Source: Candidatus Micrarchaeota archaeon
GTDB lineage: Archaea; Micrarchaeota; Micrarchaeia; Anstonellales; Bilamarchaeaceae
Assembly (NCBI GenBank): GCA_018304385.1
Contig: JAGVWJ010000061.1
Span: 1 to 15,633, forward strand
Reading direction: 5' to 3'
Length of the DNA: 15,633 nt
The translations under genes were made by a program, and so were the position numbers. Position 1 is the stretch's first letter. Each line of letters begins with the position of its first letter. Shown in pieces: positions 6,900 to 12,156 of this stretch. The notes beneath the pieces are model-generated. The model worked only from the letters and a program-made list of their open reading frames with translations. It was not told the DNA's origin and made no database searches.

Positions 6900-7214
6900 T
6901 CACTGATTCTAGTAATGAGAGCGTGCGAGCTCACGTTAAGTGAGCGAAGTTTCTTAGTGCGCAATGAAAATGACTAGCTAGATTCATGCAACGCAGAACA
7001 AGCAATTGTGCGCGTTGCTCTCTTCCGAATAGGAAGAAATCATGCGTGTGAAGTAATGACAAGAAATTCATAGTAATACACTTGAGGATCCTGAAATTCC
7101 GCAAGGAATTTTAGGAGCTAGTGATCGAAAGATCACTGGATAGTCCTCGGTATAAGAAGTGATTCATTTGCATTTAAACAAATGCAAATATTTGTCAACA
7201 ATAGTTGACAAATC
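6900..7214 (+). other. 5' external transcribed leader of pre-23S rRNA, highly structured
   Basis: Local hairpins GCTCAC/GTGAGC, GCAACGC/GCGTTGC, TCTTCC/GGAAGA. Long-range pairing to the 3' trailer: 7042-50/12041-49, 7051-73/12013-34 (one bulged T), 7156-63/12002-09. Confidence 0.75.
7082..7155 (+). mobile_element. 74-nt BHB-bounded intron-like element in the 23S leader, homologous to the intron at 11244-11477
   Basis: Central helix ATAC 7076-79/GTAT 7150-53, 5' bulge ACT, 3' bulge AAG, 7-bp inner helix TGAGGAT/GTCCTCG. Junctions TACAC|TTGA and GTATAA| are identical to those of the 11244-11477 intron, and 46 of 56 aligned positions of the internal module are identical. Confidence 0.65.
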
Positions 7215-9076
7215 ATTAGATATGCTGATTACACGCCATATAGTGGATGGCTTGGCTAGTCTTCGCAAGGTCACGTGGTAAGCTACGAAAAGTCTGGGGT
7301 AGGCGCACGCAGCCTTTGATCCCAGAATCTGACTGTGCACAGCTTGAATAAAGTTGTGCAATAACTTCCTGAAATGAAGCGTCTTAGTAAGGAATGGAAA
7401 AAAAATCAACCGAGATTCGGTAAGTAACAGCGAGTGAAAGCCGAATAGATCAAACCGAATTCTGCTTGGTAACAGGCAGTAGATGTGGTGGGGAATATCC
7501 TTTATCTTAGCTGAAGTTGACTGGAAAGTCATACCATAGCGGGTTATAGTCCCGTAAGCAAAGGAAAGAGGAATGATCCAAAAAGAGTAACATGCCCTAG
7601 ATTGGGCGTGTGAAAATAGGGGTATCAACCTCTAAATCTAAACATGGAAGATTAGACCGATAGCGAACAAGTACCGCGAGGGAACGTTGAAAAGTACCGC
7701 GAGAGCGGTGTGAAAAGTGCCTGAAATTATATGGTTACAGAATGATATAGCATGAAAGGTTAAGCATTTTGGAAGTCTGCTTGGGCAACTTAGCAGGTGA
7801 CAAGGTGTTTCAGTGTTATATCTTTCTTCTCGAAGCAAGAGCCATGGAGTTACTGGGCGTGGCGAGGCGAAAGCCGAAGCGAAAGCAATAGCGCGCAAGC
7901 AATGAGGCGCGACGTCTTAATCGGCGTTAAGTCACTCTCAGCAGACCCGAAGCCATTGTGATCTACACCTGACCAGGGCGAAGCCATTCTGACGAATGGT
8001 GGAGGCCCGCAACCGATGCTAGTATATTCTGCTCGGGTGAGTTGGGTGTAGGGGTGATAGTCCAATCGAACGTGGCGATAGCGGGTTCCCCTCGAAATGT
8101 CCCTCAGGACAGCGTCTTTCGAGGATAATACAACGGTAGAGCACTGATTACTGGGAACGGTTCCGAAAGGGATCGCCTGGTTCTCAAACTCCGAATGTTG
8201 TATTTCTATAGACAAAGGCAGTCGAGTTTCACGGAGTAAGTCTGTGAGCTCTTTCGGGAACGACCGTACGTAAGGTTAAGGACCCTAAATTCTGACTAAG
8301 TGTTAATCGTAAAGGAATCTCCTCTCTGAGACAACCGGGATGTAGGCTTAGAAGCAGCCATCATTTCGAACGGAGCGTGGTTAAACGCGTAATAGCGGAC
8401 CGGTCGAGAGTGCAGGTTCTGAAAATTCACGGGGCTAAGTCAGGTTCCGATACCTTACCCGCGCCAAAAGCGCATGGAGTAGGGGGGCGATCGGATTGCG
8501 TAGAAGTATGGCGGTAACGTCATATGGAGCAGTCTGATACGAATATCATGGTGTTAGTAGCAGCATATCCAGGTGAGAATCCTGGACACCGAATAGAGCA
8601 AGGTTTCCTCAGCAATGTTCGTCAGCTGAGGGTTAGTCGATCCTAAGGTCCGCGGTAACTCCAAGAGGCCGAAAGGGAATCTGGCTAATATTCCAGAACT
8701 ATAGTGGTAGACGTGGTAACACAAGCAGTTTCTCTGACATCTTTGGATATGTGGAGCAGCGCAAGCTGTCTGTAGGCAGTAGGTCCTCGGAGTCTCGTTG
8801 TGAGGAGAAGAGGATGAAAGCCGAAAGAGCAATTCTATTGAGTCCGGGGATCCATGAAAAGGAGAGCTGAGCGATCCATTATAATCGTACCTAGAACTAA
8901 TACAGGTGCTCTAGCTGAAAAGGCTAAGGTGTGGCAGGAGAACTTAAATAAGGGAATTCGGCAAATTAGCCCTGTACCTTCGGTATAAGGGGTGCCTTCG
9001 CTTGCGTAAAGCGGAGGTCGCAGTGACAAGGGAAGAGCGACTGTTTATCAAAAACACAGATCATCGCAGAGGCGAA

Positions 9077-9131
9077 AGCTTTGAATTTAGGGCAAAAAAA
9101 TAAATTCAAAATTTGTCCGCAAAGCAGCCAA
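9077..9131 (+). other. 55-nt ORF-less BHB intron (approx. E. coli 1809/1810)
   Basis: Central GGCG/AGCC (one G-A mismatch), bulges AAA and AAA, inner helix GCTTT/AAAGC. Excision restores the hairpin GGC-GAAA-GCC. Internal stem TTTGAATTTA/TAAATTCAAA. Confidence 0.75.
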
Positions 9132-9336
9132 AGCCTGAGTACGATGGTTGACGCCTGCTCACTACTGGTACCTGAACGTCGGTTTCAACCGGAAAAAGGG
9201 CCAGCAAAGAGCGGGGGTAACTCTGACCCTCTTAAGGTAGCGTAATACCTCGCCGCTTAATTGGCGGCTTGCATGAATGGCGTAACGACTCTTCCACTGT
9301 CCCTATTTAGGACCTGGTGAACTCACTTCCCGGTGA

Positions 9337-9392
9337 ACTTCTTTTTTCAGATTTACATATACAAAGTAGGATACTGAAGACTGAAGACCGAT
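9337..9392 (+). other. 56-nt ORF-less BHB intron (approx. E. coli 2030/2031)
   Basis: Central CGGT 9331-34/ACCG 9387-90, bulges GAA and ATA, inner helix CTTC/GAAG. Excision restores CCGGTGAAGATGCCGG. Confidence 0.88.
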
Positions 9393-9417
9393 AGATGCCG
9401 GGGACTCCCAGAGGGAA

Positions 9418-9461
9418 TTTAGCGTAATTAAATTTTTTTCAATAATTAGTGCTAGCTCTAA
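9418..9461 (+). other. 44-nt ORF-less BHB intron (approx. E. coli 2055/2056)
   Basis: Central AGGG 9412-15/CTCT 9456-59, bulges AAT and AAA, inner stem TTAGCG/TGCTAG plus TAATTA/TAATTA. Excision restores GAGGGAAACGAAGAC. Confidence 0.85.
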
Positions 9462-9644
9462 ACGAAGACTCCATGGAGCTTTACTGTAGTCTGATCTTGT
9501 AATAGCGAGTCCATTACATAGAGTAATTGGGAGAGGTCATGCTGTGTCTTTCGGGGCACGGTTACTCAAAAGTGTAACACCAATTAGTGGATTTGTTATT
9601 GCTTACTCGAAAGAGAACAGGGTCAGGTGGACAGTTTGGCTGGG

Positions 9645-10346
9645 AGCCTTTAGGAATAAGATAAACAAGAGTCCAATAGCTCGTTCTTGGTTTTTCCAAA
9701 GTTTGCAGAAGTTGATTGAACAACAGTGCTTTCAGGAAGGAATCGAATTTTAGATGCGAATTTTCTAATTTCGCTTATTCTATTAATTCGAATTCCTTTT
9801 GAAGTTATTAAACTAAATATATCCAAAGTTTCAAGAAGTTCAAAAAGCTGTTGTCTCAATCCAGGATGAACACATGCAATTTCTAAAACTGCCTTATGGC
9901 TTTTATTAGAATAGATGCATCCATCTGCTGAGAAATATGTTTGAAGGAAGGCAATTGCAAAATCTGAACTATTAAATATTTCAGAAGGAATTTTTGCCTT
10001 TGGATATTTTCCATCTTGGAAGCGAAGTGTTCTGAAAGATGGCGAATATTTAAAGAGGCAATCCGCAATTTTCTTTGAGAAAAATCTCACAGATATTGCG
10101 CCTTTACATTTGTTTATGTGGAAATTTAAATTTCCAAAACATTGGGTAGCCAAGTATTTGAATTTTTCAAGCATTTGTTTGTTTTTATTGGTAAATTGAA
10201 TACAATACGTCCGTTTACTTTTATCATAGTAGACAGAACCATCAGAAAATAAAAAACCAATAAGAGCGGCAAGATTTTTGTCCATAATTTTTATATTATG
10301 GAAAATTATATTTATAGGACTTTTGCTTATTCCTCTAGGCCAGCAA
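9645..10346 (+). mobile_element. 702-nt BHB intron in the P-loop (approx. E. coli 2252/2253) carrying an antisense homing endonuclease gene
   Basis: Central GCTG 9639-42/CAGC 10341-44, bulges GGA and AAG, inner stems GCCT/AGGC and AGGAATAAG/CTTATTCCT. Excision restores GGCTGGGGCGGTAC. Confidence 0.92.
9650..10285 (-). CDS. Double-motif LAGLIDADG homing endonuclease (211 aa), antisense to the rRNA
   Basis: Motifs LAALIGFLFSDGS and IAFLQTYFSADGC. The start is set at ATG 10285 (MDKN...) because the longer listed ORF crosses the intron boundary into exon. TATAAATA on the minus strand at 10316-10309. Confidence 0.9.
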   Translation of the reverse strand: MDKNLAALIGFLFSDGSVYYDKSKRTYCIQFTNKNKQMLEKFKYLATQCFGNLNFHINKCKGAISVRFFSKKIADCLFKYSPSFRTLRFQDGKYPKAKIPSEIFNSSDFAIAFLQTYFSADGCIYSNKSHKAVLEIACVHPGLRQQLFELLETLDIFSLITSKGIRINRISEIRKFASKIRFLPESTVVQSTSANFGKTKNELLDSCLSYS

Positions 10347-10547
10347 GCGGTACGCTCTCGATAAAGAAACAAGAGCGCCCAATGTCGATCTCATTCCGGT
10401 CAGAAATCGGAAGTAGAGGGTGAACAACAAATGATCGACTGACTGTAACCTTAAAAGCGTGGGTTGCAGGGATGAAAGTCGGGTGTAGCGAACCTTGTAG
10501 CCTTTTTGATGAGGGCACAAGCTGTCAGACAAGCTACCCTGGAGGTA

Positions 10548-11216
10548 ATTTACTAGCAATCATTTTTCTATTGCTGGAAATATAGTTTCTCTTATAAATT
10601 TTCTCTACTATTTAATCAACATGAATCCAGATCTTGCCTATTTATTAGGTGCTGCAGGTGATGCATCAGTTATCTATAATAAAAAACGTGCTGAGTATTA
10701 TATAGAATACTGGCAGAAAAATTATAAATGGCTGGAGCAAAGTGTTGCACCGCGAATCAAAAAACTTTTCAATAAAAATGTCAAATCCATTCCAAAAAAG
10801 AATGGGTTATTTCTAATGCGTTTTTATTCGAAAAGTGGTTACGAGTTGTTTAAAAAATATTTAAGCAATTCAACCTTGATTTTAGAAGAAACTAATGAAG
10901 CACAATTAAGTTATGTGCGAGGTTTCTTTGATGCGGAAGGAAGTGCACCTAAAAGAAAGCATGGTACTACCTATAGAATTCATATCTATCAAAAGAATTT
11001 GGAACCTTTGAGAGTAATCTCAAAAATACTTTCAAATAACGGAATTATTGTTGGTAATTTAACAAATAGTAGGGATATTGGCTTATTGCCTATAAGAGGA
11101 AAATCAAATATTGCATATTTTATTCAAAATGTAAAACCAGAGCATCCTGATAAAACAGTTGCTCTTGAAAACTTATGCAAGTAATTATTTTTTCCAGTTT
11201 GCTAGTAAAACCTTAT
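10548..11216 (+). mobile_element. 669-nt BHB intron in the peptidyl-transferase centre (approx. E. coli 2450/2451) carrying a sense homing endonuclease gene
   Basis: Outer helix CCTG/CAGG, central GAGG 10542-45/CCTT 11211-14, bulges TAA and ATA, inner stem TTTACTAGC/GCTAGTAAA(A). Excision restores GGAGGTAACAGGCT. Confidence 0.92.
10621..11184 (+). CDS. LAGLIDADG homing endonuclease (187 aa; two motifs, the first degenerate)
   Basis: DLAYLLGAAGDAS and QLSYVRGFFDAEGS; lies wholly within the intron; TTATAAAT at 10592-99 upstream of the ATG. Confidence 0.9.
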   Translation: MNPDLAYLLGAAGDASVIYNKKRAEYYIEYWQKNYKWLEQSVAPRIKKLFNKNVKSIPKKNGLFLMRFYSKSGYELFKKYLSNSTLILEETNEAQLSYVRGFFDAEGSAPKRKHGTTYRIHIYQKNLEPLRVISKILSNNGIIVGNLTNSRDIGLLPIRGKSNIAYFIQNVKPEHPDKTVALENLCK

Positions 11217-11243
11217 ACAGGCTCGTCGCGGGTGAGAGTACAC

Positions 11244-11477
11244 TTGAAGCTTTTAGGAAAAGCTTCACCAAAACGGTGATGCTAAAAGTTTTGATACAAT
11301 CTAGCGCAAGCTATCCTGAAATGCGCAAGCATTTTGGGAACTGGTGACCGAAAGGTCACTGGAGAGACTCTTACTTATGAGACTTCGGTCTCAATTGAAT
11401 AGAAACAAATTCTTTAAAGTAGGGGATTTAGTTGATCTCATCTGCTCTCATTATTATATTTGAGATCAACAGTATAA
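11244..11477 (+). other. 234-nt ORF-less, highly structured BHB intron in helix 89 (approx. E. coli 2477/2478)
   Basis: Central GTAC 11238-41/GTAT 11472-75, bulges ACT and AAA, 2-bp helices on each side. Excision gives GAGAGTACACATCGACCCC, the canonical length. Confidence 0.85.
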
Positions 11478-11534
11478 ATCGACCCCGCGGTTTGGTACAT
11501 CGCTGTCGGCTTGGGATATCCTGGTCGTGTAGGA

Positions 11535-11613
11535 AACACGAACCATGTATAATTCCCGATGCTGCGTTTTCCAAATAGTAGTGTTGGGAATAAACTCTGG
11601 TTCGCGTCTATAA
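11535..11613 (+). other. 79-nt ORF-less intron with a relaxed BHB in helix 91 (approx. E. coli 2534/2535)
   Basis: Central GTAG 11529-32/CTAT 11608-11, bulges GAA and AAG, inner stem ACACGAACCA/TGGTTCGCGT, internal 13-bp stem 11553-65/11578-90. The exact boundary could shift by 2 nt. Confidence 0.82.
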
Positions 11614-11741
11614 GCGGCCAAGGGTTGGGTTGTTCATCCATTAAAATCCCACATGAGCTGGGTTCAGTACGTCGCGAGACAGTACGGTAGTATCTCCTGG
11701 GAGTGTAGATCCTTGAGAGTAAGAATGCCTGAGTACGAGAG

Positions 11742-11776
11742 ATAGCGTTAGCTAGCGATAGCTATCGTAACTCGAA
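11742..11776 (+). other. 35-nt BHB intron in the sarcin-ricin loop (approx. E. coli 2663/2664)
   Basis: Central CGAG 11736-39/CTCG 11771-74, bulges AGA and AAG, internal TAGCTA-GCGA-TAGCTA hairpin. Excision restores AGTACGAGAGGAAC. Confidence 0.9.
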
Positions 11777-12001
11777 GAACGGGCATTCGGCGCCTCTAGT
11801 ATACCGGTTGTAAAATTGCATAGCCGGGCAGCCACGCGCCACGTCGATAAGATCTGAAAGCATCTAAGATCGAAGCGACTCTTAAAACTAGGGATCAAAG
11901 TCCGCCTATAGTAGATAGGTTTGATAGGATCGAGGTGTAAGCGTTTAGCGTAAGCGAGACGTTCAGCCTGCGATTACTAAAGGAATATTTGTATATCTAA
12001 T

Positions 12002-12049
12002 ATCACTTCAATCTATGATTTCTTGTCATTACTTTCATGCTACACGCAT
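12002..12049 (+). other. 3' trailer strand of the pre-23S processing stem
   Basis: Complementary to leader segments 7156-63, 7051-73 and 7042-50; followed by a T run at 12049-12055. Confidence 0.8.
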
Positions 12050-12156
12050 TTTTTTAATTTTTTATCCAAACCTTTTATGCGTTTCGCGTAAAAATTTGCC
12101 AAAATTTCTTAGCATTTTTGGCAAACCTTTTTATTTCTATTTAACATTATTCTCTC

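Follow-up and report, generated by a model that had tools for sequence, protein, structure and literature searches.

This study concerns the 23S rRNA gene of a groundwater Micrarchaeota archaeon and eight inserts that interrupt the 3' half of that gene. The gene lies on a contig of 15,633 nt that was analyzed over its full length (the window, 15.6 kb) and that belongs to a genome of 1.53 Mb, 89% complete. A preliminary description, made from the sequence of the window, had taken the inserts to be bulge-helix-bulge (BHB) introns, had placed each of them on the E. coli numbering, and had held that cuts after the second base of both bulges restore the consensus. Our approach was to define the inserts by alignment, to score the motif at their ends, and to compare the gene with RNA and DNA contigs and with the 23S genes of relatives.

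The 23S rRNA gene and its inserts

The Rfam model for archaeal large-subunit (LSU) rRNA (RF02540) matched positions 7217-11999 of the forward strand end to end (model positions 1-2987; 1930 bits). The sub-alignments placed 56 insert nt against 1 model position (after model position 1927), 124 against 20, 932 against 29, 81 against 2, and 39 against 4, and the large unaligned inserts were confined to the 3' half of the gene. BLAST comparison with the 23S genes of 19 relatives delimited a 702-nt block at 9645-10346 and gave exon blocks that agreed with the sub-alignments. No tRNA was detected by ARAGORN in the window.

The eight inserts total 1874 of the 4783 nt, or 39%; this share, the insert lengths, and the E. 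coli positions, all obtained from the alignments and the BHB scan, matched the preliminary description. Removal of the inserts gave a 2909-nt product that was gap-free at all eight junctions when aligned with E. coli rrlH and with six relatives that are intron-free there, so the consensus is restored as had been claimed. All eight junctions fell in conserved sequence in the same alignment.

The geometry scored for each boundary consisted, on each strand, of a 4-nt central-helix strand and then a 3-nt bulge, with the cut after the second bulge base. Where repeated flanking bases left 1-5 nt of ambiguity, all equivalent cut pairs were scored. The scan singled out one cut pair for each of the eight introns. 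The resulting features are listed below; the E. coli positions were taken from the alignment with rrlH.

7217-11999 (+): 23S rRNA gene, 4783 nt against 2987 model positions; spliced form 2909 nt
9077-9131 (+): intron 1, 55 nt, after E. coli 1809 (GNRA loop of helix 66)
9337-9392 (+): intron 2, 56 nt, after E. coli 2030 (loop of helix 72); central and inner helices both 4/4
9393-9417 (+): micro-exon of 25 nt between introns 2 and 3
9418-9461 (+): intron 3, 44 nt, after E. coli 2055 (at the edge of the peptidyl-transferase ring, 3 nt ahead of position 2058); central 4/4, inner 6/6
9645-10346 (+): intron 4, 702 nt, after E. coli 2252, between G2252 and G2253 (inside the P-loop, helix 80); central 4/4, outer 3/4, inner 4/4
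10548-11216 (+): intron 5, 669 nt, after E. coli 2450, between A2450 and A2451 (core of the peptidyl-transferase center); central 4/4, outer 4/4, inner 3/4
11217-11243 (+): micro-exon of 27 nt between introns 5 and 6
11244-11477 (+): intron 6, 234 nt, without an open reading frame (ORF), after E. coli 2477 (helix 89 loop); central 4/4
11535-11613 (+): intron 7, 79 nt, after E. coli 2534 (helix 91 loop); central 4/4
11742-11776 (+): intron 8, 35 nt, after E. coli 2663, between G2663 and G2664 (inside the sarcin-ricin loop, helix 95); central 4/4

The central helix had all 4 bp in seven of the eight introns. The exception was intron 1, which had three pairs and a G.A, bulges AA^A and AA^A (^, cut), an inner helix of 6 bp, and no outer helix. 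All of the 3' bulges began with A (AAA, AUA, or AAG). The inner helix had at least three of its first four pairs in five introns, two of four in introns 6 and 7, and 3 bp with a mismatch in intron 8. An outer exon-exon helix of 3-4 bp was present solely in introns 4 and 5, the other six introns having 0-2 of 4 bp, and the fixed-geometry scan did not find the strict hBHBh' form, with both flanking helices, across the intron set. The motifs are of the relaxed class with a canonical 3-4-3 core, the class that needs a broad-specificity enzyme. When random cut pairs within the same gene were scored, 6.7% of the trials gave a 4/4 central helix, and the probability that at least seven of eight introns would have one by chance was about 4e-8. 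Minimum-energy folding reproduced the BHB for introns 5, 6, and 8, and partly for intron 4. The remaining introns favored the native rRNA hairpin. This preference agrees with a long-standing view of splicing, in which the 5' exon strand exchanges its intron-mimic partner for the 3' exon.

Exon joining in RNA

Contigs assembled from three RNA runs, which are metatranscriptomes from three studies (X7, X18, and X13), and from one DNA run (X1) were compared with positions 7000-12100. The first 1860 nt of the gene, which are intron-free, were present in groundwater DNA runs and in metatranscriptomes of several studies. Exon-joining RNA contigs were obtained for all eight introns in run X7, for six in run X13, and for four in run X18. 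The joints were as follows, each written as the two positions brought together:

Intron 1: 9074>9130, 5-nt ambiguity (X7, X18)
Intron 2: 9336>9393 (X7, X18, X13)
Intron 3: 9415>9460, 2-nt ambiguity (X7, X13)
Intron 4: 9644>10347, unambiguous (X7, X13)
Intron 5: 10547>11217 (X7, X18, X13)
Intron 6: 11243>11478, unambiguous (X7, X13)
Intron 7: 11533>11613, 1-nt ambiguity (X7, X18, X13)
Intron 8: 11741>11777, unambiguous (X7 alone), with 67 nt on the shorter side

These results demonstrated that the inserts are excised and the exons ligated at the predicted bases. The unambiguous joints of introns 4, 6, and 8 lie at exactly the bases given by the BHB, and the other five match within their ambiguity of 1-5 nt; a cut after the second bulge base fits all eight junctions. 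The preliminary description had named retained inserts, or splices at other positions, as the result that would speak against it; this test was run on the contigs and left the description standing.

One 374-nt contig of X13 consisted of 9258-9336, 9393-9415, 9460-9644, and 10347-10433, that is, three splices in a single molecule. A contig of X7 had no mismatches over the variable 185-nt exon 9460-9644, which was spliced at both ends. In most relatives this exon is 67-83% identical (BLAST), and the mismatch-free match indicates that the RNA came from the same organism or a very close strain. The two joints that flank the 27-nt micro-exon were equal in depth within X7 and within X13. The interiors of introns 4, 5, and 6 had no contig cover in any of the three RNA runs, with exon depths in the hundreds; uncovered interiors count only in combination with the contigs that join across the introns. 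The RNA contigs began near 7244 and stopped near 11958, leaving the leader and trailer uncovered.

The DNA run reads through introns 1-7, and intron 8 falls in a gap between the listed X1 pieces. A single intron-free joint was found in this run, at intron 5 (10547>11217), at a depth of 5 compared with about 15. X1 also contains a variant in which 25 other letters replace most of intron 7 (11537-11606). This variant and the intron 5 joint suggest, weakly in view of the 28-nt flanks, that strains differing in their introns co-occur.

Enzymes, endonuclease genes, and relatives

The genome contains two genes with the catalytic domain of tRNA-intron endonucleases. One of them, EndA, encodes 399 aa, and its residues 11-399 align with residues 4-387 of the ARMAN-2 epsilon2 enzyme (PDB 4FZ2) with an E value of 1e-129. 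The contexts of the catalytic Tyr, His, and Lys, which lie in the middle unit of this single polypeptide, are conserved (FRIY, HSKH, and SV(K/R)K), and the Pfam catalytic domain extends from 213 to 302. EndA is, as judged by this homology, a three-unit epsilon2-type splicing endonuclease. Enzymes of the epsilon2 type cleave both strict and relaxed BHB motifs in vitro (PMC3239211), and the relaxed motifs and broad-specificity endonuclease anticipated in the preliminary description thus find their counterparts in this genome. All 80 of the listed loci with EndA homologs were on contigs of Micrarchaeota-type or unclassified archaeal metagenome-assembled genomes, except for one contig binned as Desulfobulbaceae; they were mostly from groundwater, and the best among the matches listed was 95% identical, which establishes the lineage. 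The RtcB ligase is also encoded in the genome, in a gene cut by a contig end. The second endonuclease-like gene is the following:

L023:1468-1950, contig C53 (-): second endonuclease-like gene, 161 aa

Alignment of its product to the M. jannaschii enzyme placed His and Thr at the positions of the catalytic Tyr and His. This paralog was present in 18 of the 18 family genomes searched, and endonuclease-like genes of about 390-490 aa were found beside it in eight of those genomes and in four order-level relatives. This paralog probably acts as a subunit without catalytic activity, perhaps accessory to the splicing endonuclease.

The two largest introns each contain a LAGLIDADG gene:

9650-10285 (-): gene in intron 4, 211 aa plus stop; Pfam LAGLIDADG_3, E 1e-16
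10621-11184 (+): gene in intron 5, 187 aa; LAGLIDADG_3, E 4e-10

Both genes have an intact ORF and two motifs with the acidic residue, and their products are predicted to cleave DNA as homing endonucleases; the intron 5 protein is of the I-DmoI-like two-motif type. The ORF of intron 4 is antisense to the rRNA. It is found in the same orientation, with 76% aa identity, in the homologous 700-nt intron of relative L018, which belongs to another genus. The ratio of nonsynonymous to synonymous substitution (dN/dS) was about 0.09, with synonymous sites near saturation, and the antisense gene appears to be under purifying selection. The intron 5 ORF has a counterpart in L017, where the intron at this site carries an ORF of 48% aa identity. 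A TATA-like box is centered about 26 nt before the ATG in both genes and in their L018 and L017 homologs; for the intron 4 gene it lies about 27 nt upstream of the ATG, at an equal distance in L018. These boxes suggest that each endonuclease gene has its own promoter and would be transcribed independently, without a leader, and both genes are presumably active. Antisense endonuclease genes are known in nuclear group I introns (PMC9548176); our literature search found no report of them in archaeal introns.

Mapping also covered the 23S genes of 19 relatives within the same family and order; a 20th, partial gene was left out. These genes were 2890-5113 nt long. BHB-type inserts with a 4/4 central helix were found at 1343, 1617, 1633, 1911, 1927, 1938, 1963, 2030, 2252, 2450, 2454, 2477, 2497, 2534, 2573, and 2754, and inserts with a 3/4 central helix at 784 and 2472. 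The BHB rule fit about 30 short inserts in the 19 relatives and failed at 1921-1931, where the inserts are about 700 nt or, in one case, 284 nt long. Because the failures are at known group I sites, we conclude that the BHB test discriminates. The 1921-1931 inserts, which lack a BHB, occur in L006, L011, L012, L017, and L019 and are 689-706 nt long (284 nt in L019); in four of them a sense-strand ORF of about 180-227 aa is present. These inserts probably correspond to the Micrarchaeota group I introns catalogued at LSU 1923 and 1931 (PMC6125680).

Among the 20 genes mapped, the present gene had the highest number of introns (eight), the runners-up having six. Site 2477 was occupied in 8 of the 19 relatives by introns of 49-184 nt. 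Sites 2030, 2252, 2450, and 2534 were common to few relatives: 2030 was occupied in L014 and L015, 2252 by the homologous 700-nt intron in L018, and 2450 by a homologous intron in L017. Sites 1809, 2055, and 2663 were unoccupied in the 19 relatives and were thus found only in the present gene among the 20 mapped. The suggestion in the preliminary description that some sites may be unreported is supported in part. None of the eight sites is listed in the papers compared, the table of PMC6125680 among them, and text searches found no paper that gives the BHB sites of DPANN 23S genes; the main catalogue of archaeal rRNA intron sites (Tocchini-Valentini et al. 2011) lay outside this comparison. 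The congener L014, with a sequence difference of about 19%, has a different intron set and shares only three sites, which shows that turnover is fast. At shared sites the intron interiors diverge, but the intron bases paired with the exon are either conserved or show compensating changes. At 2534 the present gene has GUAG/CUAU as its central helix, compared with GCAG/CUGU in L009 and GCA/UGC in L018; at 2450 it has GAGG/CCUU, compared with GGGG/CCCU in L017.

Intron 6 is a mosaic of structured modules that recur elsewhere in the genome. Searches for genome copies of the ORF-less introns gave partial copies of intron 6 and weak ones of intron 1, and introns 2, 3, 7, and 8 were unique; the mini-introns therefore do not form any single obvious repeat family. 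The first 31-36 nt of intron 6 (11244-11279), a hairpin plus ACCAAAAC, are present with 93-100% identity at three unrelated loci (C26:7927-7957, C58:201-234, and C20:41777-41806), two of them downstream of a C-rich tract. Intron 6 has the appearance of a minimal helix-89 intron into which dispersed structured repeats were absorbed.

The 5' leader of the 23S gene contains a 74-nt intron-like element (7082-7155) within the processing stem. Read by eye, its central helix is 4/4 and pairs 7076-7079 with 7150-7153; its bulges are AC^U and AA^G, and its inner helix is 6 bp long. The element has a two-hairpin module in common with intron 6 (11313-11366) and with C16:9142-9192, the stems of which differ in a compensatory manner. 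The leader-trailer processing stem, also read by eye, pairs 7042-7074 with 12013-12049, 7157-7164 with 12003-12010, and 7216-7224 with 11994-12002, and is broken by the leader element. A clean 3-4-3 BHB that would release the entire 23S was not located in this leader-trailer pairing.

The 16S gene (L024, C3:28631-30388, minus strand) is 1758 nt long, compared with a model of 1478 positions. Alignment with E. coli suggested mini-inserts of 56, 58, 37, and 35 nt near 727, 840, 952, and 1079. Some of their junctions were BHB-like in a scan whose window was too wide and permissive.

Interpretation and comparison with known systems

All eight inserts in this single 23S gene are very probably archaeal protein-spliced BHB introns. 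In the precursor, the intron's 3' end would carry a short stretch that mimics the exon and pairs with the last bases of the 5' exon, giving a 4-bp helix and two 3-nt bulges. In each bulge the epsilon2 EndA would cut after the second base; exon joining would fall to RtcB. The 2909-nt rRNA so produced would have restored helices 66, 72, 80, 89, 91, and 95 and two strands of the peptidyl-transferase ring. Introns 4 and 5 are, on this reading, mobile elements that carry intact LAGLIDADG genes, and the six ORF-less introns retain little beyond the BHB pairing.

Several points weigh against this interpretation. The outer helix is weak or missing in most of the introns and intron 1 has only three of four central pairs, so that cleavage by the endonuclease is something we infer. 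The RNA evidence consists of assembled contigs in place of raw reads, and such contigs are blind to intron circles and to transcription of the endonuclease genes; the samples behind the RNA runs differ from that behind the DNA run. At several joints the shorter flank is only 22-33 nt, in conserved exons, and some of the contigs with joints could in principle derive from intron-free relatives. The 374-nt contig of X13 carries eight differences, and we take it to come from a close strain and not from an identical genome.

One alternative is that the joined RNA contigs came from co-occurring intron-free strains or relatives, with some inserts retained in the mature rRNA of the present organism or its rRNA fragmented. 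The exons of the P-loop, the peptidyl-transferase center, and the sarcin-ricin loop are highly conserved, which together with the short flanks would allow such a mixture; the low-depth X1 contig shows that an intron-free intron 5 allele or relative exists, and X18 has further joints with foreign letters, from other organisms. We nevertheless consider this explanation highly improbable. The X7 contigs match variable exons of this organism without mismatch and show a splice on either side; introns 4, 5, and 6 have interiors without RNA contig cover despite the depth of the exons; and X1 had no intron-free joint at the seven sites other than intron 5. The congener L014, moreover, is divergent and has its own intron set, and inserts at G2252, A2450, and G2663 are incompatible with function according to established ribosome biochemistry. 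The short inserts, which lack an ORF and lie in hairpin loops, also resemble bacterial-type intervening sequences and expansion segments, and some of them might be excised without ligation, leaving fragmented rRNA, or be retained. This we regard as the least probable explanation of all, because the RNA contigs are continuous over every junction, with the exons ligated and the inserts gone, and because every short insert has the BHB core.

For the large inserts (introns 4 and 5, perhaps 6), a further alternative is that they are degenerate group I self-splicing introns. Position 2450 adjoins the classic L2449 group I site, which speaks in favor of this alternative. Group I introns, some with LAGLIDADG genes, are known in Micrarchaeota 23S genes, where they occupy 1923, 1931, and 2593 among the catalogued sites LSU 1923, 1931, 2500, and 2593 (PMC6125680), and the relatives described above have inserts without a BHB at 1921-1931. 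The group I and group II models, however, gave no match at the gathering threshold in the gene and none at E<=10 inside introns 4, 5, and 6, including Intron_gpI; permissive Rfam scans (RF00028 included) gave noise alone, and a group I or II origin of these introns was rejected. The ORFs leave 66 non-coding nt in intron 4 and 105 in intron 5, too little for a group I core. Both introns have a near-strict BHB, the pairing of which is conserved or compensated in the homologous introns of L018 and L017. There is only a very slight chance that group I self-splicing accounts for these inserts, and we retain the interpretation that all eight are BHB introns.

The ORF-less mini-introns (35-79 nt and the 234-nt mosaic) could also be actively spreading small BHB elements in Micrarchaeota, although we think this unlikely. 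Such elements would need no homing endonuclease to move among loops of the rRNA, its leader, and tRNA genes, and might do so by a reversed EndA/RtcB reaction and then copying back into DNA. Spreading of this kind, if true, would account for the differing site sets of congeners, the weak outer helices, and the modules shared by intron 6, the leader, and the dispersed repeats.

The intron type has long been known from Crenarchaeota and was sketched for DPANN LSU genes in 2018 (PMC6125680); the present gene is an extreme example and involves no new mechanism. New are the presence of eight introns in one archaeal 23S gene, every junction of which is RNA-confirmed, the P-loop, A2450/A2451, and sarcin-ricin loop sites, the combination with an epsilon2 endonuclease, and the micro-exons. 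Ribosome production would need eight correct protein-catalyzed splices, each presumably required for function, and three of them take place inside the P-loop, the peptidyl-transferase center, and the sarcin-ricin loop. The gene ties the epsilon2 endonuclease, so far studied on tRNA alone, to heavy colonization of rRNA by introns, and it supplies eight natural relaxed substrates with RNA-confirmed junctions. Genes of this kind are 60% longer than expected and have broken sites for universal 23S primers and probes, and annotation pipelines may truncate them. The turnover of sites in close relatives provides material on archaeal intron gain and loss.

The crenarchaeal comparators are the I-DmoI intron of Desulfurococcus mobilis and the introns of Staphylothermus marinus, Pyrobaculum, and Aeropyrum (see PMC4496867). 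The crenarchaeal 23S introns are likewise protein-spliced, lie in conserved 23S regions, and have a BHB at the junction; some contain two-motif LAGLIDADG genes and others are short and ORF-less, and the 3' end of the intron mimics the exon so that splicing switches the helix partner. The present host differs in being a mesophilic DPANN archaeon with an epsilon2 in place of an (alpha-beta)2 endonuclease. Its gene differs in having eight introns, micro-exons of 25 and 27 nt, one antisense endonuclease gene, and insertion points that include the P-loop, A2450/A2451, and the sarcin-ricin loop.

The LSU genes of Micrarchaeota and other DPANN archaea described by Nawrocki, Jones and Eddy (2018, PMC6125680) represent the same phylum and the same gene, with several introns that include BHB introns. 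That work catalogues group I introns and merely sketches the BHB introns in a figure, whereas the present gene has no group I intron. The ARMAN-2 epsilon2 enzyme (Fujishima et al. 2011, PMC3239211; PDB 4FZ2), of which a full-length homolog is encoded here, acts on strict as well as relaxed BHB motifs and is found together with many non-canonical introns; that study dealt with tRNA introns and disrupted tRNA genes, whereas the introns here are in rRNA. Multi-insert rRNA genes are frequent in bacteria of the candidate phyla radiation (CPR; Tsurumaki et al. 2024, PMC11270868). In these genes, which are likewise from ultrasmall groundwater organisms, the inserts have the same bias to the 3' half of 23S, number up to 16 per rRNA gene, often carry LAGLIDADG genes, and are missing from transcripts. 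The CPR inserts differ in being mostly group I, with some group II in 16S, and in their splicing chemistry, and their frequent 23S sites are 1917, 1931, 1952, 2593, 2604, and 2657 (PMC11270868).

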